Assembly: GCA_964360445.1 (NCBI GenBank)
Contig: CAYHWE010000001.1
Location: 221-47,411, forward strand
Source of the DNA: an uncultured Gammaproteobacteria bacterium
Lineage (GTDB): Bacteria > Patescibacteriota > Patescibacteriia > Patescibacteriales > JAKAJF01
DNA length: 47,191 nucleotides
Direction of reading: 5' to 3'
Shown here: in pieces, positions 2,765-23,212 of the stretch
Position numbering within the stretch: position 1 is the first letter of the stretch
How the letters are laid out: each line of letters begins with the position of its first letter
The notes under the pieces: model-generated
What the model was told of the DNA's origin: nothing
The model's database searches: none
Seen by the model: only the letters and a program-made list of their open reading frames with translations
Translations under genes and position numbers: made by a program

Positions 2765-2889
2765 AAGGCGCTTTTTTATTGAGAAGCGCCATTTTATTTG
2801 ACTTTTAACCTGTAAATAATATAAAATAGTAATATAAGCGATTTTGTTAATAATCAAGGACCATTGCGGCCTTGTTTATTTTGTTATTT

Positions 2890-3162
2890 ATGGATAATAA
2901 AGAGGAAAAACAGCCGAAAGAGAGTGGAAATGCCTGGTGGGCGCCGGCCTTGTTGATCTTTGCAAGATTATCCGGTTGGATATTTTTTCCTGTAATATTG
3001 GCTATTTTTGTCGGAAGATGGTTAGATGAAAAATATAGCTCGCATCCCTGGCTGTCGCTTTTAAGCATCGGAGCGGCGTTCGTTATTTCTATGTTCGGAT
3101 TAGCCTCTAACGCAATCAAGGAGCTGAATAAATGGAATAAAGAAAATAAGGATAAAAAATAG
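2890..3162 (+). CDS. AtpZ/AtpI-family ATP synthase accessory membrane protein
   Basis: Two TM segments with G.WLD.KY...PW motif; first gene of the atp operon. Confidence 0.85.
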   Translation: MDNKEEKQPKESGNAWWAPALLIFARLSGWIFFPVILAIFVGRWLDEKYSSHPWLSLLSIGAAFVISMFGLASNAIKELNKWNKENKDKK

Positions 3163-3175
3163 GATTTTAAATACT

Positions 3176-4027
3176 ATGTGCACAGAAGAACAATTGGAAA
3201 CATGTCCGGATGAAGCCAATGCCGAGATTATTCATGAAACGACTATTTTCGCCGAGCCGATTTTCAATATCGGCAGTTTTCATGTGACTAATTCATTGCT
3301 GAATTCATGGTTAGTGGTCTTTATTGTCGTTATCATCAGCCTGATCGTCAGGTCGAAAGTAAGCGCCGTGCCGCAAAAATTGCAGAATGTCTTTGAAATG
3401 GTGATCGAGATGTTTTTGGGAGTTTTTGATTCCGTAACAGGTTCAAGAGAAAAGTCATTGAAATTTTTCCCTCTCGTATTCAGTTTTTTCATTTTCATCC
3501 TGCTGAATAATTGGCTCGGGCTGCTTCCCGGCATCGGTTCTATCGGAAATGTCATCGCCGAACATGGCGAGAAAATTTTCGTCCCTTATTTCAGGGGCGG
3601 GACGGCGGACCTGAATACGACCCTGGCGCTTGCAATTATCGGAGTCGTGGCAAGCCATATCATCGGCGTAACGGCAGTCGGCGTCTGGCATTATCTGAAT
3701 AAATTCATCAATATCAAGGCATTATTGGAAATCCCTAAAAAAGTCTTTAAAGAACCGACGATATTGATAATCAATCCGATCAAGATTTTCGTAGGGCTTA
3801 TCGAACTGACAGGGGAAGTTGCCAAGGTAGCCAGCCTTTCTTTCCGTCTTTTCGGAAATATTTTCGCAGGCGAAGTCCTGCTCGCGTCCATGTCCGCGAT
3901 TTTAGCCTTTGTGCTGCCGATCCCGTTCATGTTTTTAGAGATAATAGTCGGCTTGATACAGGCATTGATTTTTGCTATGCTGATTCTGGTATATTTATCG
4001 ATAAATACAAGCCACGAAGAACATTAA
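3176..4027 (+). CDS. atpB: F0F1 ATP synthase subunit a
   Basis: SLSFRLFGNIFAGE and GLIQALIF motifs. Confidence 0.97.
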   Translation: MCTEEQLETCPDEANAEIIHETTIFAEPIFNIGSFHVTNSLLNSWLVVFIVVIISLIVRSKVSAVPQKLQNVFEMVIEMFLGVFDSVTGSREKSLKFFPLVFSFFIFILLNNWLGLLPGIGSIGNVIAEHGEKIFVPYFRGGTADLNTTLALAIIGVVASHIIGVTAVGVWHYLNKFINIKALLEIPKKVFKEPTILIINPIKIFVGLIELTGEVAKVASLSFRLFGNIFAGEVLLASMSAILAFVLPIPFMFLEIIVGLIQALIFAMLILVYLSINTSHEEH

Positions 4028-4126
4028 GTATGATTCTTAATTTCTAATTTCCAATTTTGAATTGAAAATTAAATCATTGAGAATTGTTTGAAAATTGAAA
4101 ATTAGAAATTAAGAATTAATATATAA

Positions 4127-4396
<270 letters not shown>

Positions 4397-4563
4397 TGCT
4401 ATGACTGGGAGAGGTTAAAGTTTTAGCCTCCCCGTCTCATATTGTTATCAGTAATGTAAAATGCAAAAATCAAAAATCAAAATGACAGTGTAAAATTTAA
4501 AATCATTTTTACATTTTCAATTGTCATTTTACATTTTTATATTTACACTTTAATTTAAACATC

Positions 4564-5052
4564 ATGGAGAGCCTTATTGAAACATTTCATATCGATATAA
4601 AGTTATTATCAGCCCAGGCTGTAAATTTCGCGATAGTGTTTTTTGCCCTGTATTTTTTCGCTTTGAAGCCGTTGATGAAAGTCATGCGGGAAAGGACGCA
4701 AAAAATCGAAAAGAGCCTGGATGACGCGAAGCAGATTGAAGAAAAACTGAATCAGGCGAAAGAGGAATACAATATCATCATCGCCCAGGCCAAGAGAGAA
4801 TCGAATGAGCTCCTGGAAAAAGCGAACAGGACGGCTGAGGAAAAGAAAAAGGAAATCGTCGCTAAATCAAAAGATGAGATCGGGCAGGTCATAAACCAGG
4901 AAAAAGCCAAGATGCAGGCCGAAAAGGCGCAGATATTGAAAGACATAAAAAAAGATGTTTCTTCTTTGGTTGCCGATTCGCTGGAAAAGATCCTGGGAGA
5001 AAAGATAGATCTGAAAAAAGATAAGGAATTGATCAAAAAGATAATAAAATAA
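4564..5052 (+). CDS. atpF: ATP synthase subunit b
   Basis: N-terminal TM (AQAVNF...KP) followed by a coiled coil; operon position. Confidence 0.95.
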   Translation: MESLIETFHIDIKLLSAQAVNFAIVFFALYFFALKPLMKVMRERTQKIEKSLDDAKQIEEKLNQAKEEYNIIIAQAKRESNELLEKANRTAEEKKKEIVAKSKDEIGQVINQEKAKMQAEKAQILKDIKKDVSSLVADSLEKILGEKIDLKKDKELIKKIIK

Positions 5053-5053
5053 G

Positions 5054-5455
5054 ATGAAATATACATCAAAGCATTATGCTACAACCCTTTTCCGGATAAT
5101 TGACGGCAAAAAAGCCGCTGATGTTGATGCTGTCCTGAAAAGTTTCGTTGAAACGCTTGCCGAGAACAGTCAGATCGGAAAAGCAAAGGGCATAATTGAT
5201 GAATTCGCGAGAATCTGGAATAGGGAAAAGGGGATGGTTGAGGCGGAAGTAATAAGCGCGAATGTATTGGACGAGGAGACGGCCGAAGAGCTGAAAAAAT
5301 ATATCGCCGATGCGTCGGGAAAAAAGAAAGTTGAAATCAATAACAAGATCGATAAGAAAATATTGGGAGGAGCGGTAATCAAATATGAGGATAAGATAAT
5401 AGACGGAAGTTTGAAGACAAGGATATCTGAATTGAGAGAGAGGTTGATTAAATAA
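5054..5455 (+). CDS. atpH: ATP synthase subunit delta, short 133-aa form
   Basis: C-terminal ILGG..I...D.IIDGSL motif; operon position. Confidence 0.92.
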   Translation: MKYTSKHYATTLFRIIDGKKAADVDAVLKSFVETLAENSQIGKAKGIIDEFARIWNREKGMVEAEVISANVLDEETAEELKKYIADASGKKKVEINNKIDKKILGGAVIKYEDKIIDGSLKTRISELRERLIK

Positions 5456-5553
5456 ATCAAAATGCAAAAATCAAAATGCAAAATTATAATGCAAAAATTT
5501 TAAAATTTTAAATTGTCATTTTCCATTTTGATTTTTAAATTTTACACTAATAT

Positions 5554-7062
5554 ATGAGCATAACAAAGGATTTCATCATTGAACAATTAAAAGAGCAGAT
5601 AGCTGACTTTAAGGCGGACGCGAAAAAGGAAACTGTCGGTTATGTGACGGAAGTCGGAGACGGCATCGCGAGGATTTCAGGGCTGACTGACGTCATGATG
5701 TCGGAAATGCTTGAATTCAAGACTGAGGGCGGAAAAGCTTACGGCGTGGCTTTGAACCTGGAAGAAGACAGCGTCGGCGCTATCATTTTAGGCGATCACA
5801 CCGGGGTGAAAGAGGGCGCTTTGGTAAAAGCGACAAGGAGGATTTTGGAAGTACCGGTCGGAAACGAGATGATCGGACGCGTAATCAATCCATTGGGCGA
5901 AGCCGTTGACGGCAAGGGGGATATCGATACGGGTAAGCATTATCCTATTGAAAAAATCGCTCCCGGCGTAATCGCCCGCCAGTCAGTCAACCAGCCCTTG
6001 CAGACCGGCATCAAATCGATCGACGCTATGATTCCGATCGGACGCGGACAGAGAGAACTGATCATCGGCGACAGGCAGATCGGCAAGACTTCTATCGCAA
6101 TCGACACAATCATCAACCAAAGAGGCCAGGGCGTAAAATGTATTTATGTCGCTGTCGGGCAAAAGGAGTCAAAAATCGCCGGCATTGTTGCTAAATTGGA
6201 AGAAACGGGCGCCATGGAATACACGACAGTAGTATTGGCAGGCGCTTCTGATCCGGCATCTTTGTTATACATCGCTCCATACTCCGGCACCGCTTTGGCT
6301 GAATATTTCTTAGACAAGGGTGAAGATGTCCTGATTGTCTATGATGATTTATCCAAGCACGCTGTCGCTTATCGTGAAATTTCTCTATTGCTCCGAAGAC
6401 CGCCGGGACGCGAAGCTTATCCGGGAGATGTTTTCTATTTACACTCAAGGCTTTTGGAAAGAGCTTGCCGCCTGAATAAAGAGCACGGCGGAGGTTCGAT
6501 CACCGCTTTGCCTATCATTGAAACACAGGCTGGCGACGTGTCAGCTTACATTCCTACAAACGTGATTTCTATCACTGACGGTCAGATTTATCTTGAACCG
6601 GATCTGTTTTACAAAGGCAATCGTCCGGCTGTGAACGCAGGCCTTTCCGTGTCCCGCGTAGGCAGCTCAGCGCAGATCAAGCCGATGAAAAAAGTTGCAG
6701 GAAAGATGAGGTTGGAAGCCGCTCAGTTCCGCGAATTAGCCGCTTTTGCCCAGTTCGGTTCTGACTTGGACGCGGAAACAAAAGCAAAATTGGAAAGAGG
6801 GAAGAGATTGACTGAAGTTTTAAAACAAGATGTATATTCTCCATTGCCGGTAGCGAACCAGGTATTAGTATTCTACGCTTTGATCAATGGATTTATCGAT
6901 GATGTAAAAGTAGAGGATGTGATAAAATGGGAAGCCGGTTTGCATAGATATGCAGAAACAAACGGAGAAGCAGTTTTAACAGAAATCACAAAGGGGGAAT
7001 ATAGTGATGAGTTAGAGGTGAAAATGAAATCTTTGATTTCTGATTATAAATCAACATTGTAA
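5554..7062 (+). CDS. atpA: ATP synthase subunit alpha
   Basis: GDRQIGKT and [23 protein letters not shown]. Confidence 0.99.
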
Positions 7063-7110
7063 TTTTTACTCCCCATTAGCAAGGGGGAGATTAAGAGGGG
7101 GTATAATAAA

Positions 7111-8055
7111 ATGGCAAAAACCAAGGAAATAAAATCAAGGATAAAATCTGTTTCCAATACGAAAAAGATCACGAGAGCGATGGAGATGGTTTCAGCCGCA
7201 AAGATGCGAAAAGCGATCGAGGCTGTTTTGCGCACCAGGACTTACGCGAATTTGAGCTGGGAGACGGTCTTGAATTTGTCTCAGGCTTTAAGGAATGGCA
7301 ACGGCGGCTATGTCCATCCCTTGCTTGCGAAGAGAGAAAATATCAGGAAGATCGGAGTCGTGCTGTTTACCTCGAACCGCGGATTATGCGGAGGGTTCAA
7401 TGCAGCCGTGATAAACAAGATCCAGAAATATGTTGAAAATTCAGGCGGAGCGGAAGTCGATTTCTTCTTGGTCGGGAAAAAAGGCGTTGCCATCCATAAG
7501 AATTACGGATACAATATTGTCGCGGAATTTTCAAAATTGGATCTGTCTTCGGAGGTGAAAGAAATAATTCCGGTCGCGAATATGGCGATGAATGACTTTT
7601 TGTCAGGCAAATACGATAAGATTTTTGCCGCTTACACTGATTTTGCAAGCGCTTCCAGACAGATTCCTCGCGTTAAGCAATTATTGCCGGTTGATGTCGG
7701 CGCGGAAGATGGGCATTTGGGAATTGTCGGCGAAGATACGAGAGTCGGGATCACAAAAGAGTTTATTGAAGATAAAGAAGAAAAACATATCAGCGGATCG
7801 GAATATACATTCGAGCCAAGCCCGAAAGAAGTTTTGGATGCGATGATCCCGAGGCTGATCGAAGTGCAGCTTTTTCAAGCGTTATTGGAATCGAACGCAT
7901 CCGAGCATAGCGCAAGGATGATGACGATGCATCAGGCGACAGACGCGGCTTCGGAAATGGTCAAGGAATTGACATTATTCTATAACAAAGCAAGACAGGC
8001 GGCGATTACGGCGGAAATCGCGGAAATCGCGGCAGGCGCAGAAGCGTTGAAATAA
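7111..8055 (+). CDS. atpG: ATP synthase subunit gamma
   Basis: KITRAMEMV, RGLCG, SEHSARM and RQAAIT.EI.EI. Confidence 0.98.
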   Translation: MAKTKEIKSRIKSVSNTKKITRAMEMVSAAKMRKAIEAVLRTRTYANLSWETVLNLSQALRNGNGGYVHPLLAKRENIRKIGVVLFTSNRGLCGGFNAAVINKIQKYVENSGGAEVDFFLVGKKGVAIHKNYGYNIVAEFSKLDLSSEVKEIIPVANMAMNDFLSGKYDKIFAAYTDFASASRQIPRVKQLLPVDVGAEDGHLGIVGEDTRVGITKEFIEDKEEKHISGSEYTFEPSPKEVLDAMIPRLIEVQLFQALLESNASEHSARMMTMHQATDAASEMVKELTLFYNKARQAAITAEIAEIAAGAEALK

Positions 8056-8061
8056 GTTTAA

Positions 8062-9456
<1,395 letters not shown>

Positions 9457-9464
9457 TCAAAAAA

Positions 9465-9564
9465 TGTCATTTCGAATGAGCGGCAGCGAGTGAGACCTGC
9501 CTGCGCAGGCAGGAATCTCGGCAATAGCATTTGACGAGATCTCTCGCATCCGCTCGAGATGACA
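9465..9564. repeat. Palindromic intergenic element (TGTCATTTCGA...TCGAGATGACA) with a nested 18-bp palindrome CCTGCCTGCGCAGGCAGG at 9496-9513
   Basis: Terminal inverted arms and internal perfect palindrome read directly. Confidence 0.7.
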
Positions 9565-9572
9565 AAAGAATT

Positions 9573-10007
9573 ATGTCTCAAAAGACAATCAAATTTGAAA
9601 TTGTTACTCCTGAGCGCGTTGTGCTTAAGGAGGAAATCACGCAGGCAACCGTTCCTACAAAGGAAGGGGAGATTACCGTACTTCCGGACCATATCCCGTT
9701 GGTCGCGACTTTGCAGCCTGGGGTGATTGAAATAAAGAACAAGGCTGGGGAAAAGGAAGTAATGGCGGTTTCCGGCGGTTTTATCGAGGTTGTAAAAGAT
9801 AAAATTGTGATATTGGCTGATACGGCAGAAAGAGCTGAGGAAATCAGTGTTGAAAGAGCGGAAGAAGCAAGGAAGAGAGCAGAAGATATCAAGAAGGGCG
9901 CAGCCCATAGGGATGATGTGAATTTCGCGGATGTGACAGCTAAGATTGAAAAGGAATTGGCAAGAGCAAGCGCAGTCAGACGCTGGAGAAGACTCAAAAA
10001 TCTATAA
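9573..10007 (+). CDS. atpC: ATP synthase subunit epsilon
   Basis: IVTPER, GEITVLPDHIPL and VSGGFIEV; ATG 9573 chosen because the upstream extension runs into the repeat. Confidence 0.96.
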   Translation: MSQKTIKFEIVTPERVVLKEEITQATVPTKEGEITVLPDHIPLVATLQPGVIEIKNKAGEKEVMAVSGGFIEVVKDKIVILADTAERAEEISVERAEEARKRAEDIKKGAAHRDDVNFADVTAKIEKELARASAVRRWRRLKNL

Positions 10008-10092
10008 ATTTTAAAAAACGACAGAAGCCGCTTCAGTCGTTTTTATTTTGAGAAATTTTGAATTTGTCATTGCGAGGAGCGGAGCTCCTCAT

Positions 10093-10241
10093 TGTCATTC
10101 CCGACTCGATCGGGAATCCAGGGGTAACTAGTACTAAGGTGAATTTTTTACGAAAACTCTAGAAATAGATTCCTTGAAATTTGTATGAATATCCGCCTTC
10201 CTGCTGGCCGACCCTGGATCCCCGCTTTCGCGAGGATGACA
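10093..10241 (+). mobile_element. ~150-bp MITE-like palindromic element, copy A
   Basis: Left arm TGTCATTCCCGACTCGATCGGGAATCCAGGG, right arm CCCTGGATCCCCGCTTTCGCGAGGATGACA; homologous copies at 10559-10708 and 21311-21408. Confidence 0.75.
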
Positions 10242-10291
10242 GAATTGAGAAAATAAAAAACCCTCTCCGGTGGATTGGAGAGGGCGGTGGG

Positions 10292-10471
10292 TCAATGAGG
10301 AAGGTGTGCGTTGATAGCGAAAATGTATTTATCGATAATGTCGATAATGCCGGGAAAGTATGTATTAATAATCGCTGAAATGATCCCGATTATCCCGAGC
10401 AGTATTAAGGGAGAATATACAATAAGAACTTCTTTATTGTGCTCTCTCCTCATTTTTTTATAATCACGCAT
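10292..10471 (-). CDS. Putative 59-aa single-TM small protein (MRDYKKMRREHNKEVLIVYSPLILLGIIGIISAII...)
   Basis: G-rich SD; TTGACA(10539-10544)-17 bp-TATACT(10516-10521) promoter with extended -10 TG; hairpin ccctctcc/ggagaggg at 10261-10284 plus a T run. Confidence 0.65.
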   Translation of the reverse strand: MRDYKKMRREHNKEVLIVYSPLILLGIIGIISAIINTYFPGIIDIIDKYIFAINAHLPH

Positions 10472-10558
10472 GTGACACCCCCCCTTTATTTTATTTTGAA
10501 AATAACGATAAATATAGTATAGCATAAATTTGTTAATTTGTCAATTACGGGCGTTTAT

Positions 10559-10708
10559 TGTCATTCCCGACTCCGATCGGGAATCCAGGGGTAATCCGTA
10601 ATGAGGTGAAAATTAGTAATAAGATTATAGGAATCGCTTTCTTGAAAATTTGTAAAATATTCAGCTTCCTACGGGTAACCCTGGATCCCCGCTTTCGCGA
10701 GGATGACA
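10559..10708 (+). mobile_element. ~150-bp MITE-like palindromic element, copy B
   Basis: Arms nearly identical to copy A; interior diverged but alignable. Confidence 0.75.
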
Positions 10709-10881
10709 GATGGGGCAAGTAAAAATTATCCACTTGACTTTTAAATAGGGAGGAGTACGATTATCATTGGGATTATCATTGGGTGTGATTTTGAAGGAAT
10801 TCTTCGAAAAAATACCTAAGGATAGTCCTTAAATGTTTTTGAAAAAAATGGAGCCGGACGGTTCCGAAATATAAAAATTTT

Positions 10882-11421
10882 ATGTTGAAGATGTACAGCA
10901 AAATCTTTTCCACTCCGAAGACTGTGATTGATGCAGGATCTTTGGTTTGTAATGACGTTGAAATCAATAATCTCGGAGGACAGATCCAGAAAAAAGTTAA
11001 AAAGCTATTCCGCGGATCTTTAGCTATCAGGGTTGTAACTGCCGGTTCTACGAATGCTTGCGAGCAGGAATTGGTCGCTTTGGGTAATGCTTATTATGAT
11101 GTCGACAGGTTCGGCGTGCATTTTGTCGCGTCTCCGAGACATGCTGACATGCTGATTGTTACCGGTCCGGTTTCCCGCAATATGCGCACTGCTTTGATCA
11201 AGACTTATGAAGCGATGCCGGAACCGAAAATAGTTGTCGCGCTTGGAAACGATGCTATCGATGGCGGTATCTTTAAAGGTTCTTACGCGGTTTTAGACGG
11301 AGTGAAAAATGTTATTCCGGTCAATTTTGAAATTCCGGGAGATCCTCCTTCACCAAAAACGATCATGTGCTATCTTCTTAAAATTTTAGAAGCGATCGAT
11401 AGCAATCCTAAAAATAAGTAA
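10882..11421 (+). CDS. Ehr/group-4 hydrogenase small subunit-like protein (HycG/HyfI/NuoB family) with degenerate Fe-S ligands
   Basis: SPRHADML.VTGPV and YEAMPEPK.VVA motifs; ligand positions read GSTNAC, GNDA and IPGDPP. Confidence 0.9.
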   Translation: MLKMYSKIFSTPKTVIDAGSLVCNDVEINNLGGQIQKKVKKLFRGSLAIRVVTAGSTNACEQELVALGNAYYDVDRFGVHFVASPRHADMLIVTGPVSRNMRTALIKTYEAMPEPKIVVALGNDAIDGGIFKGSYAVLDGVKNVIPVNFEIPGDPPSPKTIMCYLLKILEAIDSNPKNK

Positions 11422-11431
11422 TTAGAAATAT

Positions 11432-13468
11432 ATGACTATCATCACTTCTCAAATTATTTTTCTCGCTTTGGCTTCCGCTTTTTTATTGGGCGGAATCGGG
11501 GCTTTGTTTTTTGAAAAAGGCCGTTTGGCAAATATCTGGGGCAACTCTTTTGCGGCATTAGGTTCATTGTTAGGAATTATCTTAGGAGGATCTGTTTTGG
11601 TTTTCGGAAATGTCTTTTCTTATAGCTTGACATTGCCAAACGCGCTTTTCTCTTTATCATTCAAGCTGGATTTCATCTCAGCTTTTTTTGTATTCGTGAT
11701 TTCTTTGATCGCTTTCCTTTGCTCGATCTTCGCTTTCGGATACGTAAAACATTTTTATGGCAAATATAATATCGGTGCGTTGAATTTCTTCTATAATCTT
11801 TTCATCTTGGGCATGATCCTGGTTGCGACCGCCCATAATTCATTATTATTCCTTATCGTTTGGGAAATAATGTCTTTGGCTTCATATTTCTTGGTTATTT
11901 ACGAAAGGAAAGAGGAGGACAATTTGAAGGCAGGTTCCCTGTATTTCATCATGACCCATATCGGTACCGCTTTTATCGCGCTTGCTTTCTTGCTGTTATA
12001 CAAAGTTACGGGATCTTTTGAATTCGCGGCCATCAAGGAGGGCATCATTCACATCACTCCTTTTATGAAGAACGCGATTTTTTTATCCGCATTGATCGGT
12101 TTCGGAATCAAGGCCGGTATCTTCCCGTTGCACATCTGGCTGCCAAGCGCCCATCCGGCAGCACCATCCCATGTTTCAGCCCTAATGTCCGGCGTTATGA
12201 TCAAGACAGGCATCTATATGTTCATCAGGATGTTTTTCGATATCTTGCCGAACGCGCCGCTATGGTGGGGGATCGTTATCCTCGTAATCGGCGCCGTCTC
12301 TTCTTTGCTCGGCGTTTTATACGCGTTGTCCGAACATGATATCAAGAGGCTTTTAGCTTATCACAGCATCGAGAACATCGGGATCATCCTGCTCGGTATG
12401 GGCAGCTCTTTGGTTTTCCTGTCTTTCGATATGAAAGCATTGGCCGCGCTTGGCCTTATGGCTGCGTTTTTCCACACTTTGAATCATGCCACTTTCAAGG
12501 CTTTGCTATTCTTGGGCGCCGGATCCGTCGTATCGGCAACACACACCCGCAATATTGAAGAATATGGCGGACTGATCAGATATATGCCTCAGACAGCCTT
12601 TTTCTTCCTGGTCGGCTCTATGGCTATTTCCGCCTTGCCTCCGTTCAACGGATTCTTCAGCGAATGGATGACATTCCAATCTTTATTCCAGGGAATCAGC
12701 GTCCTTAGTTTCGGTTCGAAATTGGTCTTTATGGCCGCCGCCGGTTCTTTGGCGTTCACAGGCGGGCTTGCTGCCGCTTGCTTCGTCAAGGCTTTCGGAG
12801 CTACATTCTTGGCAAGACCGAGAAGCGAGGAAGCGAAGCACGCGAAAGAGCCTTCAGTTTCTTTGAAGACCGGCATGGCCGGACTGGCTTTGTTGACTGT
12901 CGTGTTCGGCGTATTTTCCGGATCTGTTTCTTCTGTGTTACTAAGGATTGTCGACAGTATCGCCGTGTTCGGAAAAGCAGCTTCAGCCGTATCGTTTGAA
13001 AATCAAGCGGTCAGCGTAAACGATTTTGCTTACGCGTCCATGCTTAATGTATTCTTCGCCCTGATAGTCGTAACCGCTTTTACCGCCGCTTTGGTTTATT
13101 TCTTTACAAGGAACCAGAAAGTGAAAACAGGAATCACCTGGGATTGCGGAACAACTCTGACTCCGAGGATGGAAATTACCGCAACCGGATTTTCACGTTC
13201 AATCATAACGATTTTCAAAGGGATCCTGAAGCCGACAAGACAGACAGAGGTGGAATACCAGGACGCGAAGATGAGATATTTCCCGAAATACAGTTCCGTG
13301 CTTTTGGAAACGCCCGACCTTTACAGGGAGAAAATTTATGAGCCTTTCCAGAAAATCGTCACAAAGATTTCAGAGAACGTCAAGAAAATACAGAACGGAA
13401 ATGTCAACGCGTATATCCTATACATCATCATCGCTCTGATCGGCTTACTAATTACATTTGCAATTTAA
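11432..13468 (+). CDS. hyfB: HyfB/HycC-like proton-translocating antiporter-like subunit (NuoL/MrpA family)
   Basis: WE.MSL, KAG.FPLH.WLP.AHPAAPSHVSALMSG and KRLLAYHSIENIG; many TM segments. Confidence 0.9.
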   Translation: MTIITSQIIFLALASAFLLGGIGALFFEKGRLANIWGNSFAALGSLLGIILGGSVLVFGNVFSYSLTLPNALFSLSFKLDFISAFFVFVISLIAFLCSIFAFGYVKHFYGKYNIGALNFFYNLFILGMILVATAHNSLLFLIVWEIMSLASYFLVIYERKEEDNLKAGSLYFIMTHIGTAFIALAFLLLYKVTGSFEFAAIKEGIIHITPFMKNAIFLSALIGFGIKAGIFPLHIWLPSAHPAAPSHVSALMSGVMIKTGIYMFIRMFFDILPNAPLWWGIVILVIGAVSSLLGVLYALSEHDIKRLLAYHSIENIGIILLGMGSSLVFLSFDMKALAALGLMAAFFHTLNHATFKALLFLGAGSVVSATHTRNIEEYGGLIRYMPQTAFFFLVGSMAISALPPFNGFFSEWMTFQSLFQGISVLSFGSKLVFMAAAGSLAFTGGLAAACFVKAFGATFLARPRSEEAKHAKEPSVSLKTGMAGLALLTVVFGVFSGSVSSVLLRIVDSIAVFGKAASAVSFENQAVSVNDFAYASMLNVFFALIVVTAFTAALVYFFTRNQKVKTGITWDCGTTLTPRMEITATGFSRSIITIFKGILKPTRQTEVEYQDAKMRYFPKYSSVLLETPDLYREKIYEPFQKIVTKISENVKKIQNGNVNAYILYIIIALIGLLITFAI

Positions 13469-13472
13469 ACAT

Positions 13473-14396
13473 ATGCCAATCATCATTTGGGTCATCCAAT
13501 TATTGTTAATTCCAATCCTGTCGCCGTTTTTTGTCGGTGTGACAAGAAAGATAAAAGCGAGATTACAGAATCGCCGGGGAGCGTCCGTGCTCCAGCCTTA
13601 CAGGGATTTATGGAAACTTTTCCATAAAGACGAAATTATCAGCGAAGACGCTTCCTGGGTTTTCAGGTCAGCGCCCTACATCATCTTCGCGGTTACGATA
13701 ATCGTCGCTTTTGCTATCCCGTCAGTCACTACGGCCTTGCCGGGACTGTTCAGCGATTTCCTTGTCGTTGTTTATCTGTTGGCTTTGGGTACATTCTTTC
13801 TCGCTCTTGCCGGCATGGATACAGGCAGCGCTTTCGGCGGATTCGGTTCTTCAAGAGAAATGACTATGGCGGCTTTGGCCGAGGGCGGATTGATTTTCTC
13901 GATTTTGGCTTTGGCGTTAGCGGCAAAAACGACAAACCTATCCGGCATCGCTGAAGCGGTCAGCTCGCTTCCTTTTGTAGCTTTTATCCCTGTCTTGATC
14001 GCGTTTGCCGGCTTCATGATCGCATTGCTTTCTGAAACAAGCCGTTTTCCTTTTGACAATCCGGCGACACATCTTGAATTGACCATGATCCATGAAGCTA
14101 TGATTTTGGAATACTCAGGCAAGAGATTGGCATTGATCGAATGGGCTTCTGCGAACAAATTGCTGATTTTCATCGCTTTGGGCGCCAATCTGTTTTTCCC
14201 GTGGGGTCTGGCCGGATCTTTGAGTTTGGCTGCCCTTATTCCGGCTTTATTGTTTTTTGTCTTGAAGGTCTTGGCGGTTTGCGTCATTATCGCTCTTATT
14301 GAATCCACCATCGCCAAGTTCAGATATTTCAGACTGCCTGACTTATTATTCATTTCTTTCATACTTAGCGTCATCGCTATCAGTCTTATCATATAA
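13473..14396 (+). CDS. hyfC: HyfC/HycD (NuoH-like) membrane subunit
   Basis: RKIKARLQNRRG, R.PFDNP.THLELTMIHEAM.LEYSG. Confidence 0.9.
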   Translation: MPIIIWVIQLLLIPILSPFFVGVTRKIKARLQNRRGASVLQPYRDLWKLFHKDEIISEDASWVFRSAPYIIFAVTIIVAFAIPSVTTALPGLFSDFLVVVYLLALGTFFLALAGMDTGSAFGGFGSSREMTMAALAEGGLIFSILALALAAKTTNLSGIAEAVSSLPFVAFIPVLIAFAGFMIALLSETSRFPFDNPATHLELTMIHEAMILEYSGKRLALIEWASANKLLIFIALGANLFFPWGLAGSLSLAALIPALLFFVLKVLAVCVIIALIESTIAKFRYFRLPDLLFISFILSVIAISLII

Positions 14397-14400
14397 ATAT

Positions 14401-15057
14401 ATGCCTGAATTTAATCCGCAATTTTTATTGTCGTTGGAAACGTTGATTTTCGCATCAGTTATCCTGATGCACCTGGTGAAAAAAAGCTCTTCAATGATCT
14501 CGCTTTATATCCTGCAATCGGCGGTAGTGGTTTTTCTCCTGCTGACCCATCTTTTCAGCGATTTCTCTTTTTCTTTGTTGGCAGTCATCATCCTGGTTTT
14601 TGCCGTCAAGGTCCTTGTCGCGCCAAGATTTTTCTTTAAGCTCATCAACAGGCACCAGTTGAAATTCACGATAAGCAATTTCCTGAATTCTCCGCTGACC
14701 CTTATCGTTTTAGCCGTTTTGACCGCTGTTTCCCATTCGGGCGCGCTTAAGCCATTGGTCGGTCTTGCCGGCGGCAACGGAGACGCCTTGTTGATTTCAA
14801 TATCGGTGATCCTGATTTCCCTGTTTCTGATCGTCAACAAGAGGGGGGCATTGTCCCAGATGATCGGCATCCTGTCGCTGGAAAACGGGATCGTATCTTT
14901 CGCGTTCCTGATGGGACTTGAGCAGGCGCCGGCGCTGGAGTTGGGGATCATTTTCGATATCCTGGTCTGGATCATCATCGCGTCAGTATTCGCTTCCATG
15001 ATTTATAAGCAATTTGGTTCTCTTGATGTCACATCAATGAAACATTTAAAGGAATAA
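14401..15057 (+). CDS. hyfE: HyfE-like membrane subunit
   Basis: Hydrophobic, with Q.IG.L.LENG and ELGI.FD motifs; position between hyfC and hyfF. Confidence 0.85.
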   Translation: MPEFNPQFLLSLETLIFASVILMHLVKKSSSMISLYILQSAVVVFLLLTHLFSDFSFSLLAVIILVFAVKVLVAPRFFFKLINRHQLKFTISNFLNSPLTLIVLAVLTAVSHSGALKPLVGLAGGNGDALLISISVILISLFLIVNKRGALSQMIGILSLENGIVSFAFLMGLEQAPALELGIIFDILVWIIIASVFASMIYKQFGSLDVTSMKHLKE

Positions 15058-15061
15058 TCAT

Positions 15062-16507
15062 ATGCCATTAATCTTAATCATTTTTTCACCATTAGTTGCT
15101 GCGGTATTTTCTTTTTTCGTGAAGAAGAAAACATCTTTCCTGGAAATCGCGACAGCGGCAGTTTCTTCCCTTGAGCTGATTGCCGCCATCGTGATCGCGT
15201 ATGAAGTTTATAAGAGCGGATCTTATACTCTAAGCTCTTATCTGGCCGTAGACGCATTGGGCGCGTTGTTGCTTATGATCGTTGCGGTTGTCGGATTCGC
15301 GGCATCGATTTATTCCATCGGCTATTTGAGAGAGGAAGTCAAGAAAGGAATAATCGGATTCAGTAGGGTAAAACAATATTTCATCCTTTTCCATCTGTTC
15401 GTGATGGCGATGTTCTTCGCTATCGCGACAACCAGCCCGATAATGATGTGGATCGCGATCGAGGCGACTACTTTGTCGACCGCATTCTTGATCAGTTTTT
15501 ATAACAAGCCATCAGCAATGGAAGCGGCTTGGAAATACCTTATTATCAACTCTGTCGGTTTATTATTGGGATTCTTGGGCACGCTCCTTTTCTTCACTCC
15601 GCTTTTGGATTTAGGTTACCACGGCCTTGTGAATTGGAGCGTGATCATGAAGAATGTTTCTCATTTTGATCCATTCGTGATCAAGATGGCTTTTATTTTT
15701 GTCTTTATCGGTTATGGAACAAAAGTCGGTTTAGCGCCTATGCACACTTGGCGCCCAGACGCTTACAGCAAGGCGCCGACTCCGATCGTCGCTTTGTTTT
15801 CAGGCGCTTTATTGAATGTGGCGTTTTTAGCGCTGCTTCGTTTCAAGACAGTGACTGACGCGGCGATCGGCGCATCTTTCTCAAGCCAATTATTCATTTT
15901 CTTCGGCATATTATCGATCGTCATCGCTGCTTTCATCATGTATGTGCAGAAGAACTATAAGCGCTTGATCGCTTATTCCAGCATCGAGCACGCAGGTATC
16001 ATGGCGCTAGGTTTCGGATTCGGCGGCATCGGCGCTTTTGCCGGACTTTTGCATATGATCTATCATTCGATCACGAAGTCGCTTTTATTCCTTACTGCCG
16101 GCAATGTATTCTTGAAATACAGCTCCACAAAAATCGCGAATGTGCGCGGCATGATTTCTTCCCTGCCTCTGACAAGCGTAATTTTCATTATCGGATTCTT
16201 AGCTATCACCGGCATCCCTCCTTTCGGAATTTTTGTTTCCGAATTCTATATCTTGTCAGCCGGAATCGCTAATCATCCGATCGCTTCAATAATCGCATTA
16301 TTCTCTTTTGCCTTGGTGTTCGTCGGATTCTTGAAGCATGTCGTTGCTATGGTATTCAGCAAAGAAGAGGAAGAAGTTGCTAAGGGAGAAGCCGGGATCT
16401 GGACTATTTTGCCTTTGATATTCTTAACAATAATTTTAATCATATTTAGCATTTATCTTCCGACTCCGGTAAAGACTTTGATGGATGCTGCTATTTTAAT
16501 TTATTAA
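15062..16507 (+). CDS. hyfF: HyfF-like antiporter-like subunit
   Basis: W.AIEATT, EAAWKY, GYGTKVGLAPMHTW.PDA and KRL.AYSS.EH. Confidence 0.9.
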   Translation: MPLILIIFSPLVAAVFSFFVKKKTSFLEIATAAVSSLELIAAIVIAYEVYKSGSYTLSSYLAVDALGALLLMIVAVVGFAASIYSIGYLREEVKKGIIGFSRVKQYFILFHLFVMAMFFAIATTSPIMMWIAIEATTLSTAFLISFYNKPSAMEAAWKYLIINSVGLLLGFLGTLLFFTPLLDLGYHGLVNWSVIMKNVSHFDPFVIKMAFIFVFIGYGTKVGLAPMHTWRPDAYSKAPTPIVALFSGALLNVAFLALLRFKTVTDAAIGASFSSQLFIFFGILSIVIAAFIMYVQKNYKRLIAYSSIEHAGIMALGFGFGGIGAFAGLLHMIYHSITKSLLFLTAGNVFLKYSSTKIANVRGMISSLPLTSVIFIIGFLAITGIPPFGIFVSEFYILSAGIANHPIASIIALFSFALVFVGFLKHVVAMVFSKEEEEVAKGEAGIWTILPLIFLTIILIIFSIYLPTPVKTLMDAAILIY

Positions 16508-16511
16508 TTCT

Positions 16512-18062
16512 ATGCAAATCGAATCATATTTACAGAACATAGAAACTAAAAAATACGGAAATATAATCGCTTACGGATTGCCGGCTGAAAAAATAGTTGA
16601 TGAGTGCGACAGGCTTTACAACGAACATGGATTACGGTTGAAAACGATTACGGCAAAAGATGAAAGGAAAGAGAACGGTTCTTTCAGGATAATGTATATT
16701 TTCGGAATGCCGGGAGAAAATGTTTTCCTGATGCCTTTTATTTCGGTCAAAGGCGACGAATTCCCGTCTATCGTGAATGTCGTGCATGAATCATCCTGGT
16801 ATGAGAGGAAGATAAAGACTTTTTTCGGCCTACATCCGAAAGGGCACCCGAATCCAAGACAGATCCTGTTGCAGGAAAATTGGCCGGATAATATTTTTCC
16901 GTTAAGGAAAGATTTTGATGGCAAGACCAGGCCGGGCCAGGCAAATACCCCTTATCAGTTCCATAAGGTGGAAGGAGAAGGTATTTATGAAATTCCTGTC
17001 GGACCTGTCCATGCCGGAATTATCGAGCCGGGGCATTTTCGTTTCAGCGTTGCCGGAGAAGAGATCTTATTGCTCGAACCAAGATTGGGATTCACGCATA
17101 AAGGAAGCGAAAAACTTTTTGAAACTCTGCCTTTGCCGGATAAATTGAAATTGTCGGAAAGGATTTCCGGCGACAGCTCATTCAACCATTCTTTGGCTTT
17201 CTGTCAGGCGGCGGAATCTTTGGCCGGCATCGAAGTCCCTGAACGCGCAAAATATCTGAGAGTGATTTTTGCCGAAATGGAAAGGATCGCCAATCACTTC
17301 GGCGATATCGGCGCGATAATGCTCGATACAGGATTCAGTTTCGGCGGAGCCAATGGCGGCAGATTGAGAGAAATGGTCATACAATGGAATGAAAAATTGA
17401 CTGGCAGCCGTTTCTTAAGGAGCGTAAACGCGATCGGCGGAGTAACCAAGGACATCCCGGAAGAATCAAGAAACCAGCTAAGCAAGGACCTGGATTCTAT
17501 CTTTAAAGATTTCAAAGAGGTTATCGATATCGCGGAAAATAGCAATTCTCTCTATAATCGTCTTAAAGATTCCGGCACCCTGGATAAACAGATAGCGAGA
17601 GATCACGGCGTTATCGGTGTCGCCGGCAGAGCGACAGGCTTATCGGCTGACGCGAGAATCGATTATCCATATGCCGCTTATGACAAATTCAATTTTGAGA
17701 TCGCGGTTGAAAACGGCGGCGATGTCAACGCGAGATATCTTGTAAGGATCAAAGAAGTTTCCACTTCTATGCGGATATTGCAGGAAGCTTTGGATAAAAT
17801 GCCAAACGGACCGATCGCTTCCGGACAACAGATAGCCTTTAAGCCTGACTTTTATGCCCTGGGAATAGCCGAGGGCTGGAGAGGGGATATCGTTTATATG
17901 ATCGCGACGGATGAGAGCGGAAATATTTCCAGAGTCGAAGTCCGCGACCCGTCTTTCCTTAATTGGGCGGCGGTAGGACATGCCGGAAAAGGCAATGTTG
18001 TCCCGGATTTTCCATTGATCAATAAGAGTTTTAACTTATCATACTCAGGAAACGACCTGTAA
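16512..18062 (+). CDS. Ehr large subunit (HycE/HyfG-like, fused NuoC/D type) lacking the NiFe-binding cysteines
   Basis: GPVHAGIIEPGHFRF, HKG.EK, EGWRG and RDPSF.NW; L1 position reads ERISGDS and L2 reads NKSFNLSYSGNDL, with no CxxC in either. Confidence 0.9.
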   Translation: MQIESYLQNIETKKYGNIIAYGLPAEKIVDECDRLYNEHGLRLKTITAKDERKENGSFRIMYIFGMPGENVFLMPFISVKGDEFPSIVNVVHESSWYERKIKTFFGLHPKGHPNPRQILLQENWPDNIFPLRKDFDGKTRPGQANTPYQFHKVEGEGIYEIPVGPVHAGIIEPGHFRFSVAGEEILLLEPRLGFTHKGSEKLFETLPLPDKLKLSERISGDSSFNHSLAFCQAAESLAGIEVPERAKYLRVIFAEMERIANHFGDIGAIMLDTGFSFGGANGGRLREMVIQWNEKLTGSRFLRSVNAIGGVTKDIPEESRNQLSKDLDSIFKDFKEVIDIAENSNSLYNRLKDSGTLDKQIARDHGVIGVAGRATGLSADARIDYPYAAYDKFNFEIAVENGGDVNARYLVRIKEVSTSMRILQEALDKMPNGPIASGQQIAFKPDFYALGIAEGWRGDIVYMIATDESGNISRVEVRDPSFLNWAAVGHAGKGNVVPDFPLINKSFNLSYSGNDL

Positions 18063-18118: not shown

Positions 18119-18147
18119 TTGACAAATTTTGATATTTGTGGTATTGT
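18119..18147 (+). promoter_or_regulatory. Sigma70-like promoter upstream of the carbonic anhydrase-like gene
   Basis: TTGACA-17 bp-TATTGT with extended -10 TG. Confidence 0.5.
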
Positions 18148-18287: not shown

Positions 18288-19328
18288 ATGGTGGAACTAC
18301 CAAAAGTATTGAGAGATCTGAAAGGCTTGAACAAGCAGTATTCAGACCAATTTCTGGGGGACCAGCTGGAACGGAGGTCTTGGCGCGCAGAACACCCGAC
18401 AAAAATTTGCGCTTTTAAGTGCATGGACGGCAGGATACATCTTCCTCATGCCACCGAAACGCCGTTAGGAATAATCAAGTCTTTCAGGAATCTTGGCGGC
18501 GCTTTTGATATGGGGTGGAGCTATCTTAGCTCGGTGGTCGATGAATGCATCGACCATGAGGTAAGAAGAGGGAGGAAGGTCCTGTTTCTTATCACGTATC
18601 ATTTTTCCCGGGGCGACAAGCATCGGGGATGCGCCGGGCATGATTACGACAAAAAAAAGGCCATACAATCTGTCATTGCTTTCAAGGAGCAGATAGAGAG
18701 GATATATGGCGCTGACCATCGGATCGTGTGCCCGGTAATATGCGGCTTTGAAACAGACTTTGACGCCTTGATTCTTCATGGAGACAACGGCGGGATCGCA
18801 GACCTTTCCGAGATAGAGGATTCGTCGGAAACGAATGTAAAATCTTTACTGACGGATATTTTCAGAAAGATGCCACAGGATATTCTCCGTGATTTCGTGC
18901 CTTTGGTCCAGGGTAACATAAGACATATAGCCGAAATAAAAACGCGGAACAGGGCGATCATAGACGTCCAGCACAAAGAGTCCGTTCTCGCTGTAGGCAG
19001 GGGATTCGACTGGTTGCATGAGCCGAATAGGGCATTGGTAATCGGTCCTTATCAGCCGAACCTGGATGATGCCATCAGGGTCGGGCTGAAAGTAATCCTG
19101 TCTAACTTCGAGGGCAGGAGAATCCAGAAGAAGGACGGATTCATAGCTCTTGCTTCTGCTACATATGTCGAGGCAGGAGTAAAGGGGAACAGGGCCAAGG
19201 AGAGAGCAATATTCCTGAAAAATATGATAAAAGGGATAATCGATAACGACTTTCCCGGGTTAAGGAATCTTGCGCATCTTATGGCTGTAATTACGGATCT
19301 TAACACGCAAAAAATCGAGGAGGTGTAA
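18288..19328 (+). CDS. Beta-class carbonic anhydrase-like protein resembling carboxysomal CsoSCA
   Basis: Zn-site motifs C-M-D-G-R and H-F-S-x6-G-C-A-G-H, plus RNLGG; SD GAGGAGG. Confidence 0.7.
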   Translation: MVELPKVLRDLKGLNKQYSDQFLGDQLERRSWRAEHPTKICAFKCMDGRIHLPHATETPLGIIKSFRNLGGAFDMGWSYLSSVVDECIDHEVRRGRKVLFLITYHFSRGDKHRGCAGHDYDKKKAIQSVIAFKEQIERIYGADHRIVCPVICGFETDFDALILHGDNGGIADLSEIEDSSETNVKSLLTDIFRKMPQDILRDFVPLVQGNIRHIAEIKTRNRAIIDVQHKESVLAVGRGFDWLHEPNRALVIGPYQPNLDDAIRVGLKVILSNFEGRRIQKKDGFIALASATYVEAGVKGNRAKERAIFLKNMIKGIIDNDFPGLRNLAHLMAVITDLNTQKIEEV

Positions 19329-21636: not shown

Positions 21637-22338
21637 ATGACGACAGGGTCGATCACGAAAAAAGTAACGAGCGGACAGGAAAAGCAGTGGGGACGGTTTG
21701 TCGAGGATACAATCTGCGAAGCACGCAAGCAGGTGGCGATTGATAAGGGCGCAATGCAGAGTCTTCTCGGCAACGGCGACAAGGTTAGGGCAGGGATTAT
21801 TGACCTGCTTATTAAACATTCGGCATCCGACGACAGGTTCGGGCTGGTTACAGCCTTTAAGCTCACGGTTCCGAAAGGCTACAGCCATGACACGCAGCTT
21901 GCGATTTTCGCTTCGTTCGCGAAAAACAAGTCCGAAAAGTTCTATTATTACAATGACAATATAACGGACGAAAATTTCGCCAAGGTGACGCAGAAGCTCG
22001 TTCCGGGCAAGACCTACGGGGTCAAGATTTTCCAAATTAAGAGCTATGTAACATCGGAAGACTGCCTGGCATTTCTTGCCTCGCAGAGAGCGATACTCGT
22101 CGGGGCACAGGGTCTTTCCCTAGTCAGACAGCTCAAAAAGGATCAGTTTCCGACGATTGGGAAATGGACGGTCTCTTTCGACGAGAAAGACGCTCTTTGG
22201 GCTGACGGCGACGGTGACCACAGGGTGCCGTACTTGTATCGGTATTCGGACGGCGACTGGGGTTTCGACCTCGGCGGCTTCGAGGGGGACTGGAATGGCG
22301 ACGGCTGTCTTCTTTGCTTCTGCGACTTAAGCGCTTAG
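21637..22338 (+). CDS. DGR target protein (233 aa) with C-terminal variable region; CLec-like fold presumed
   Basis: The last ~45 codons contain the VR; SD AAAGGAG; no signal peptide visible. Confidence 0.92.
   Translation: MTTGSITKKVTSGQEKQWGRFVEDTICEARKQVAIDKGAMQSLLGNGDKVRAGIIDLLIKHSASDDRFGLVTAFKLTVPKGYSHDTQLAIFASFAKNKSEKFYYYNDNITDENFAKVTQKLVPGKTYGVKIFQIKSYVTSEDCLAFLASQRAILVGAQGLSLVRQLKKDQFPTIGKWTVSFDEKDALWADGDGDHRVPYLYRYSDGDWGFDLGGFEGDWNGDGCLLCFCDLSA
22201..22323 (+). repeat. DGR variable repeat (VR)
   Basis: Ungapped 123-bp match to 22661-22783 with 14 mismatches, all opposite TR adenines. Confidence 0.97.
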
Positions 22339-22375
22339 GCGCTTGGCCGCTTAGGTCTTTAGACCTTAGACTCTT

Positions 22376-22410
22376 AGAGCCTCTGCTATATGCAGGGGCT
22401 CTGTTTTTTT
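22376..22410 (+). terminator. Hairpin with T tract after the target gene (terminator and/or DGR target-recognition hairpin)
   Basis: agagcctctgc-tatat-gcaggggctct followed by gttttttt. Confidence 0.7.
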
Positions 22411-22660
22411 ATATAATATTTTTAGATATGGTTAGGATATGCGGCTAAGGCTTCATGCTATCTTATCTTGTAAAGGAATTTTACGAGGAGTTCATCGGGT
22501 AAAACTTTATGAATGAGAGTAATCCTTTATGAAAAAATTAAATAAGTCGGTGCGGTGTGCTAATGAGCATAAAACCTCTAATGATAGACAGGCTCAGGAT
22601 AAAATACAGGGAATGACCGGTGTTGTTCCCGGTGGAAAAGGAAGGCACGCCGTACATACC

Positions 22661-22783
22661 GCTGACGGCGACGGTAACCACAGGGTGCCGAACTTGAATC
22701 GGAATTCGGACGGCGACTGGAATTTCAACCTCGGCAACTTCGAGAAGGACTGGAATGACGACAACTGTCTTCTTTGCTTCTGC
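22661..22783 (+). ncRNA. DGR template repeat (TR), core of the template RNA
   Basis: Adenine-bearing copy of the VR, with 9 AAY codons in the target reading frame. Confidence 0.95.
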
Positions 22784-22802
22784 CACTTATTTGATTCTCT
22801 CG

Positions 22803-23212
22803 CTATTTATTGGCGGGAGTTTTTTCTTGCAAACTCTTTTTCCAACCGCCGAGCATACGGCCGATCTCGTCAAGTGAAACGATGAAATCTCCGTAATTGG
22901 AATGACTGATGATTTTTTGCTCCCAGCTTATTTGGATGAAAAATTTTAGAAGGTCACATTTTCCGGTTGCCTGGGATACGTGTGATAATTTTTCGAATTT
23001 ATCATGAGCAAAAGAGGCTCTGAATATCAACTCGAGAAAAGATAAAAAAGTATCATCAATTCTCGCCCCGATAGAATACCTATCGATACGGTTAAGATTC
23101 GACAGATTTTTATGCCAAATTTGATAAATTTCTTTGGCCCTGACGAGAGCTAAGGGTGATTGTGCTGAAACAGAAGGGGGGGGGGTGTAATATTAATAGA
23201 ATGTTTAAGCAT
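22803..23212 (-). pseudogene. avd: Avd-like accessory variability determinant (four-helix-bundle family), frameshifted relative to ATG 23212 at a C10 tract; possibly phase-variable
   Basis: Frame is open from 23192 to 22803 (...KEIYQIWH...DRYSIGARIDD.FL..LELIF...EIGRMLGGWKK) with no ATG/GTG/TTG before TTG 23030; ATG 23212 joins this frame if the tract is C11 or C8. Confidence 0.8.

Follow-up and report, generated by a model that had tools for sequence, protein, structure and literature searches.

Ehr-type operon lacking nickel-iron and small-subunit iron-sulfur ligands beside an ATP synthase and a carbonic-anhydrase-type gene in a Patescibacteria-related genome

The 47,191-nucleotide (nt) stretch analysed here, referred to as the window, covers positions 221 to 47,411 of contig CAYHWE010000001.1 (assembly GCA_964360445.1; genome of 901 kb, 95% complete), and the closest named homologues of its proteins come from Patescibacteria, to which the genome is therefore presumed to belong. 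At 10882-18062 it carries six open reading frames (ORFs) on the plus strand that encode the full subunit set of an Ehr complex, a group defined in the available sections of three papers by large subunits without a nickel-iron (NiFe) site (PMC7304191, PMC10284858, PMC4378227). The small subunit (EhrS, HyfI/HycG/NuoB-like, 10882..11421, 179 amino acids (aa), PF01058, aligned to HycG and MbhJ) is followed by a HyfB-like antiporter-type subunit (11432..13468, 678 aa, above the cut-off of the NCBIfam model 'hydrogenase 4 subunit B'), a HyfC/NuoH-like subunit (13473..14396, PF00146, with a likely ATG start at 13473, the longest ORF beginning with TTG at 13458), a HyfE/NuoK-like subunit (14401..15057, 218 aa, below the cut-off of the hydrogenase 4 membrane subunit profile), a HyfF-like antiporter-type subunit (15062..16507, 481 aa, assigned by profile matches and conservation) and the large subunit (EhrL, HyfG/HycE-like with NuoC and NuoD fused, 16512..18062, 516 aa). 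The genes, ordered S-B-C-E-F-G, have no internal stops and are spaced by 4-10 nt. A preliminary description of the window had reported six intact ORFs, no ferredoxin-like subunit in the operon and no hyp genes in the window; all of this holds, neither ferredoxin nor hyp genes being found among the 47 scanned window ORFs. No Rfam elements were found at the operon.

The unusual part of this complex is the loss of [4Fe-4S] ligands from the small subunit, while an NiFe-less large subunit and an absent ferredoxin subunit are ordinary for Ehr. T57 (ACG at 11050), C60 (TGC at 11059), D124 (GAT at 11251) and D154 (GAT at 11341) align with the four cluster cysteines of Escherichia coli HycG (7z0s_G) and Pyrococcus furiosus MbhJ (6cfw_J), so that a single cluster cysteine is left, exactly as first described, and the protein is a T/C/D/D variant of the usual four-cysteine Ehr small subunit. 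According to the available part of PMC9474812, HycG holds cluster G1 at the place where complex I has N2. Among the 120 closest homologues (the best 120 of 7931 protein matches) the ligand pattern is TCDD in 92, TADD in 17, DCDD in five, SCDD in five and TEDD in one. Because TCDD recurs in 92 of the 120, the pattern is due to neither chance nor sequencing error, and the suggestion that it marks a conserved clade is borne out. At most one cysteine occupies the four positions in any of these homologues and none does in 18; C60 is kept in 102, and D124 and D154 are invariant in all 120. Two of the outcomes that the preliminary description had named as telling against it were not encountered: the remaining cysteine columns (23 in 80/120, 70 in 17/120, 163 in 99/120 and 22 in 5/120) do not fall on ligand positions, and no close homologue retains all four cysteines with selection relaxed here, the proportion of nonsynonymous differences (pN) being 0.19-0.39.

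Across 30 distinct cluster-free loci 13 ligand patterns were counted, including TEGD, SEGD, NEGD, SEES and DTDN, and half of these loci (15/30) encode small subunits with no ligand cysteine. The rule common to them is that at least two of the four positions are Asp or Glu (120/120 closest homologues, 30/30 distinct loci); six further loci are consistent with it, and in most zero-cysteine members E60 accompanies G124 as a compensating shift, a Gly at 124 always being paired with Glu at 60. By contrast, 120 de-duplicated four-cysteine Ehr loci from Omnitrophota, Acidobacteriota, Chloroflexota, Actinomycetota and metagenomes, the Geobacter sequence not being among those checked, keep the full CCCC motif. 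An Acidobacteriota-rich Ehr group (L056, L057, L061-L063, L065-L070, L072-L074, L077 and L080) is changed at the fourth ligand only, to CCCD and in one case CCCN, and is a candidate three-Cys-one-Asp or [3Fe-4S] intermediate.

Since many members have no cysteine at all and the acids shift between positions, an Asp-ligated Fe-S cluster is disfavoured: cluster binding without any thiolate is not plausible, and a fixed metal site is not expected to move its ligands. A [4Fe-4S]2+(Cys)4 unit carries a 2- charge, which two carboxylates would match, so charge replacement would fit the observed rule. D/N123, E61 and C60 lie close in sequence to the D124/D154 region. The AlphaFold model of the small subunit has the NuoB/PSST fold with a pLDDT of 63, and below 50 in the ligand loop, which is too poor for pocket geometry. 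Outside the small subunit, no clade-specific substitution that could build a new metal site stood out as common to the three groups of cluster-free operons described below. The genome encodes NifU, radical SAM enzymes, pyruvate:ferredoxin oxidoreductase (PFOR) and ferredoxins, and it also has a group-3b-like NiFe hydrogenase accompanied by a HypC-HydE fusion. SufBD was not found in the genome search. As Fe-S machinery and Fe-S proteins are encoded, the ligand loss is specific to the Ehr complex; a cell-wide loss of Fe-S clusters was rejected on the evidence of NifU, the radical SAM enzymes and PFOR.

In the large subunit, ERISGDS (17157) and NKSFNLSYSGNDL (18021) align with the two CxxC motifs of HycE, and S219/S222 and S510/G513 replace the four NiFe cysteines, in agreement with the loss first described and as in other Ehr large subunits; the chain ends at the mature C-terminus. 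All four NiFe cysteines occur in only three rows of the large-subunit alignment. The four cysteines, the ferredoxin-like subunit and the Hyp set of group 4 NiFe hydrogenases (Hyc/Hyf/MBH/Ech) are thus missing from the operon, as are the tandem-cysteine N2 cluster, the quinone-site His/Tyr pair and NuoA/I/J of complex I or NDH-1. The equivalents of the quinone-site residues of Thermus Nqo4, which we take to be numbered His38 and Tyr87, are not conserved in the alignment. Fourteen residues (H167, E172, H175, H196, D221, E257, R258, H262, R300, R457, K505, S506, Y511 and D515) are invariant in all 23 cluster-free large-subunit rows, and these are common in the other Ehr rows too. The preliminary description had included the absence of a ferredoxin subunit in the anomaly, a point that has to be given up: the motif CxxCxxCxxxC[PA] is missing in 50/53 complete cysteine-retaining loci as well as in 18/18 cluster-free loci.

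The membrane arm is retained. The HyfB-like subunit keeps E145, K227, H241, K258, H352, K356 and E411, the HyfC-like subunit the E-channel-type acids E134, E142, E193, E207, E213 and E218 (numbered from 13458), the HyfE-like subunit E161 and E180, and the HyfF-like subunit E134, K221, H228, K339 and E394. There are 66 charged or His positions that are conserved in 80% or more of the membrane subunits of four-cysteine Ehr, and the window keeps 63 of them. These include all central-axis Glu/Lys residues of HyfB and HyfF as well as the chain of acids in HyfC; those changed are B592, C112 and F235. We presume from work on complex I that these residues serve the proton path. All six genes are under purifying selection, with proportions of synonymous differences (pS) of 0.70-0.89 against pN of 0.19-0.39 between the window and 12 relatives; only pN and pS are given because synonymous sites are saturated, and bounds on omega were computed under an assumed dS of 3.

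Cluster-free operons are patchily distributed. Among 401 genomes of the phylum sample 21 had a match and ten a full cluster-free Ehr small subunit, and among 301 genomes of the order sample 12 had the large subunit, one of which (L311) was of the ordinary CCCC type; a genus-level search around genome G044 returned that genome only. The lineage nevertheless comprises at least 120 clusters at 90% identity. In trees built from 37 of the 84 available rows, and without named Ehr reference sequences, the window operon is nested among cysteine-retaining, NiFe-less Ehr loci. Three cluster-free groups were each recovered with a support of 100: group A, containing the window, group B with fused HyfC-HyfE, and the small group C. 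The two Patescibacteria-rich groups A and B join at an SH-aLRT of 88 in the concatenated tree, the large-subunit tree showing three separate groups, and a single clade including group C was not rejected (approximately unbiased (AU) test, p 0.31). Independent origins of the cluster loss, considered for these three groups, are therefore not shown. The fusion protein of group B is about 530 aa long, and all six loci that encode it (L107, L114, L145, L151, L308 and L310) adjoin an ATP synthase and a carbonic-anhydrase-type gene. A second zero-cysteine group with the patterns DTDN, DADD and DADN (L162, L170, L200 and L209) has its small subunit last in the operon and neither of these neighbours, and is possibly an independent cluster loss. 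Two cluster-free operons (L007 and L008) were found on contigs binned as Syntrophaceae and Gammaproteobacteria, by transfer or mis-binning.

Upstream of the Ehr operon, an F1Fo ATP synthase operon (atpI-like, a, c, b, delta, alpha, gamma, beta, epsilon; identified by profile search) occupies 2872..10007 on the plus strand. Its c subunit is without the Gln and Ser/Thr of what we take to be the Na+ motif, which indicates an H+-type enzyme. The preliminary description placed the Ehr operon directly after it. The linkage itself recurs in relatives, but in the window 874 nt separate atpC from the Ehr operon: a terminator-like 15-bp hairpin followed by a T run directly after atpC (10014..10044, plus strand, recognised as an inverted repeat in the sequence and not listed by the terminator scan), two repeats at 10091-10243 and 10557-10710 (inverted-repeat search), which we presume to be REP-like, and between these a minus-strand ORF of 77 codons (10292-10525), which has a strong promoter-like site and no Pfam match. 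The segment 10091-10710 looks like an insertion between the two operons. In relatives such as L106, L145 and L308 the ATP synthase, Ehr and carbonic-anhydrase genes abut. An adjacent ATP synthase was found in 7/18 complete cluster-free loci (those with at least 1 kb of flank) in addition to the window and in 0/53 cysteine-retaining loci, a control that mixes trait with lineage because its members come almost all from other phyla; loci whose contig ends lie too near (L131, L304-L306, L309 and L115) were omitted from these counts. In the phylum sample atpD was present in 9/9 other genomes with cluster-free Ehr versus 229/401 overall, a tally in which one unpublished genome (G214) and some weak matches are counted.

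Downstream, 225 nt after the Ehr operon, lies a gene that the preliminary description did not mention. It encodes a non-carboxysomal homologue of the CsoSCA-type beta-carbonic anhydrases (18288..19328, plus strand, 346 aa, PF20686 above cut-off), whose zinc-site residues C45, D47, R49, H105 and C115, in the Cys-x-Asp-x-Arg, His, Cys arrangement, are invariant in 88 aligned relatives, and whose model (pLDDT 95) matches CsoSCA at a Foldseek TM of 0.74-0.76. The product is thus a predicted carbonic anhydrase (CA) of the CsoSCA type. A promoter-like site precedes the gene at 18119-18147; with 28 such sites found versus 20.8 expected, a single site is weak evidence. A CA-type gene was found beside 8/8 cluster-free loci adjacent to ATP synthase in the first set (window included) and 3/4 in a later set from the order, giving 11/12, and often lies on the other side of the Ehr operon instead of next to atpC. 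No real CA or ATP synthase was found beside the 53 cysteine-retaining loci; the sole CA motif match, in L043, proved to be a Ham1 protein. The CA genes of Ehr loci are non-orthologous and of three kinds: CsoSCA-type (window, L106, L114, L137, L145, L308 and L310), gamma-class (L107 and L151, best PDB matches CcmM and Cam, E 1e-36 to 1e-31) and other beta-type genes, assigned by Pfam Pro_CA_2 in L309 and by motif, with weak Atlas leads, in L107, L108, L138 and L303.

Because the complex has no electron site and an intact proton path, redox-free proton movement is the most likely mode of action, and redox-free operation as such seems probable. The recurrent company of an H+-type ATP synthase and CAs points to a role in the control of proton-motive force and acid-base balance. 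Our preferred reading, put forward tentatively, is that this Ehr complex translocates protons without redox chemistry and, in partnership with the F-type ATP synthase and a CA, controls proton-motive force and cytoplasmic acid-base balance in a manner linked to CO2. The small subunit would bind no Fe-S cluster, at least two carboxylates replacing its negative charge so that the protein can fold and dock, and the soluble head would serve as a gate or ligand site rather than as an electron wire. The species coupled to proton movement would probably be CO2 or bicarbonate; the ATP synthase would pump or use protons, and the CA would keep CO2, HCO3- and H+ in equilibrium. It is doubtful, though conceivable, that Ehr complexes generally are inorganic-carbon-coupled proton translocators, in which binding of CO2 or bicarbonate by the former NiFe pocket drives the complex-I-type membrane arm. 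This lineage, with neither metal centre left, would be the plainest demonstration; the conserved E172, H175, D221, H262, R457 and K505 together with serines would be the candidate pocket, and ATP synthase, CA and Ehr could form a CO2/bicarbonate-proton circuit that energises respiration-less cells or pumps carbon. A carbon pump similar to DAB can be imagined, but it would be short-circuited by a CA that is freely soluble. The available part of PMC13293708 reports that Patescibacteria keep ATP synthase and are mostly without respiration, and the operon bears on Ehr function as well as on the source and use of proton-motive force in this phylum. A conserved complex-I-type machine without a redox site represents a natural experiment that parts ion translocation from electron transfer, and it calls for caution in annotating such genes as hydrogenases or NADH dehydrogenases. 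If the CO2-coupled reading is true, a machine of the complex I family would be run by acid-base chemistry, not by electrons.

Several observations weigh against the preferred reading. In the window the ATP synthase, Ehr and CA units look separately transcribed. Of 78 ATP synthase operons with no Ehr beside them, 14 had a beta-CA-type gene nearby, which in 13 cases gave a Pro_CA_2 match (4 kb downstream of atpD was inspected in 78 of 80 fetched phylum genomes chosen for higher-scoring atpD matches, two being too short; the flanks differ, with about 3.5 kb on one side here and about 4.8 kb on two sides for Ehr loci; 16 operons matched and 14 were counted, L276 and L291 having been dropped by eye as shadow-frame ORFs). 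Of the 11 complete cluster-free loci that do not adjoin an ATP synthase, just one has a CA-type gene next to it, so the CA tracks ATP synthase first: it accompanies the ATP synthase in the phylum regardless of Ehr, and more so where Ehr is present. The Fisher p-values for the association (1e-6; 0.03 for the later set alone) overstate it because the loci are related. In the phylum sample, 7/10 cluster-free-Ehr genomes with examined loci have no CA neighbour by motif, and the window CA as a query matched 1/9 other such genomes genome-wide, other CA classes not having been searched at that scale. The calls in L107, L108, L138 and L303 rest on the Cys-x-Asp...His-x-x-Cys motif only, the cysteine-retaining controls for ATP synthase adjacency are confounded with lineage, as said, and the persistent C60 could bind a metal. 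In the 95%-complete genome neither RuBisCO nor a convincing carbamoyl-phosphate synthase was found, so there is no evident demand for concentrated bicarbonate; PFOR would make CO2. No measured function of any Ehr complex was found in the passages of the literature consulted. These points leave room for a possible, if less probable, explanation in which the complex is an Mrp-like redox-free ion exchanger or a regulated proton channel serving the ATP synthase, and the CAs belong to the ATP synthase neighbourhood with no direct tie to Ehr. HyfB and HyfF are homologues of Mrp subunits, ten of the 11 complete cluster-free loci away from ATP synthase do without a CA-type neighbour, CAs follow control ATP synthase operons as well, and one docking site common to three unrelated CA folds is unlikely. 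What such an exchanger does not account for is the rise in CA frequency from 14/78 to 11/12 once Ehr joins the locus and the frequent position of the CA at the distal end of the Ehr operon, away from atpC; moreover, no subunit matching the Mrp Na+ module, as we take it to be composed, is encoded.

The preliminary description had left two alternatives, an Asp-ligated metal site and a redox-independent translocator, of which the second is favoured. The first may be widened to a carboxylate-rich pocket that holds some non-canonical metal, be it Mg, Mn, Ca, Zn, mononuclear Fe or a mixed-ligand cluster, and couples Lewis-acid or redox chemistry to pumping. Carboxylates are established, common metal ligands, and the invariance of D124 and D154 among the closest homologues, with D/N123, E61 and C60 near in sequence, would suit it; but the acids move among positions 57, 60, 124 and 154, and 124 can be Gly, which fits badly with a fixed coordination geometry, known Asp-ligated [4Fe-4S] sites presumably keep three cysteines, and an electron-input gene was never a consistent neighbour. 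Such a pocket is therefore unlikely. It is more improbable still that the complex is redox-driven through a partner encoded elsewhere (a ferredoxin, or the group-3b hydrogenase small subunit) or a quinone-like acceptor, given that no cluster site is left beside the large subunit to take electrons and the presumed quinone-site residues of Thermus Nqo4 are not conserved. In favour of this reading, the genome has a group-3b-like hydrogenase as well as PFOR and ferredoxins, and Geobacter Ehr was more abundant on formate according to the accessible portion of PMC7894505. A decaying relic of a horizontally acquired hydrogenase operon would fit the patchy occurrence (10/401 phylum genomes, 12/301 in the order); the six intact reading frames, a low pN in spite of saturated synonymous sites, invariant replacements and the size of the lineage largely refute it already and make it a very remote prospect.

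The redox-free translocator can be compared with several known systems. Ehr sequences of the candidate phyla radiation (CPR) form their own clade with large subunits lacking metal-binding cysteines (Jaffe et al. 2020, PMC7304191), a feature common to the window, whose relatives are named Patescibacteria, so the two are likened by description; the available text and the Fig. S6b legend of that paper treat the large-subunit L1/L2 motifs only, with no small-subunit loss, ATP synthase or CA linkage. The Ehr of Geobacter sulfurreducens (GSU0739-45), Nitrospira, Sulfobacillus and Omnitrophota have the same six subunits and are NiFe-less according to the sections available (PMC7894505, PMC10284858, PMC4378227), and likewise are usually without a ferredoxin subunit; four-cysteine Ehr loci are mostly ordered B-C-E-F-G-S, as opposed to S-B-C-E-F-G in the window. 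E. coli formate hydrogenlyase (Hyc/Hyf) and Pyrococcus MBH (7z0s, 6cfw) have homologous subunits, but they carry NiFe, cluster and ferredoxin-like subunits and make H2, whereas the window operon is without these sites. In the DAB system (DabA/DabB), as described in the available part of PMC13144422, a beta-CA-like protein and a complex-I-type proton-conducting subunit, without redox cofactors, carry out CO2 hydration driven by proton-motive force; DAB combines a single antiporter-like subunit with a dedicated DabA that is gated and anchored in the membrane, in contrast to the four membrane subunits, hydrogenase-derived head and interchangeable, apparently soluble CAs of the Ehr loci. No window ORF matched DabA (PF10070), the neighbour being CsoSCA-type. 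Like the window CA, orphan CsoSCA homologues (Pulsford et al., 10.1101/2023.07.31.551272) have the CsoSCA fold, lack the N-terminal domain and occur outside a carboxysome operon. They are reported to be often located near NADH or NiFe hydrogenase genes or permeases; the passage available names no Ehr, CPR or ATP synthase. A search of full-text literature, with subscription papers outside its scope, returned neither small-subunit ligand loss nor an association of Ehr with ATP synthase and CA. The CPR Ehr clade was thus known already by its large subunit, with no report found of the small-subunit loss or the CA link. Mrp Na+/H+ antiporters are likewise redox-free, with two antiporter-type subunits, but without a hydrogenase head or NuoH-like subunit; the window in turn does not encode the MrpA-G set with its Na+ module, whose composition we presume.

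Further CA genes were observed after ATP synthase operons of the phylum: small Pro_CA_2-type genes in 14 loci (L226, L229, L240, L241, L246, L254, L260, L261, L265, L269, L280, L281, L287 and L292), and in L211 a CsoSCA-type gene plus a second beta-type gene. Elsewhere in the genome, the group-3b-like NiFe hydrogenase is encoded at L121 (G000:C34, 4517-9269, minus strand) by a large and a truncated small subunit, preceded by homologues of the [FeFe]-hydrogenase maturases, HydG and the HypC-HydE fusion, both above the NCBIfam cut-off; HypD was not found in the 95%-complete genome, nor was an H+-pyrophosphatase found. Finally, the window contains a diversity-generating retroelement (21637-24190) with a reverse transcriptase at 23156-24190, a variable repeat of 129 nt at the end of a 233-aa ORF (22201-22329) and a template repeat at 22661-22789, with 14 of the 15 mismatches between the repeats at template adenines.

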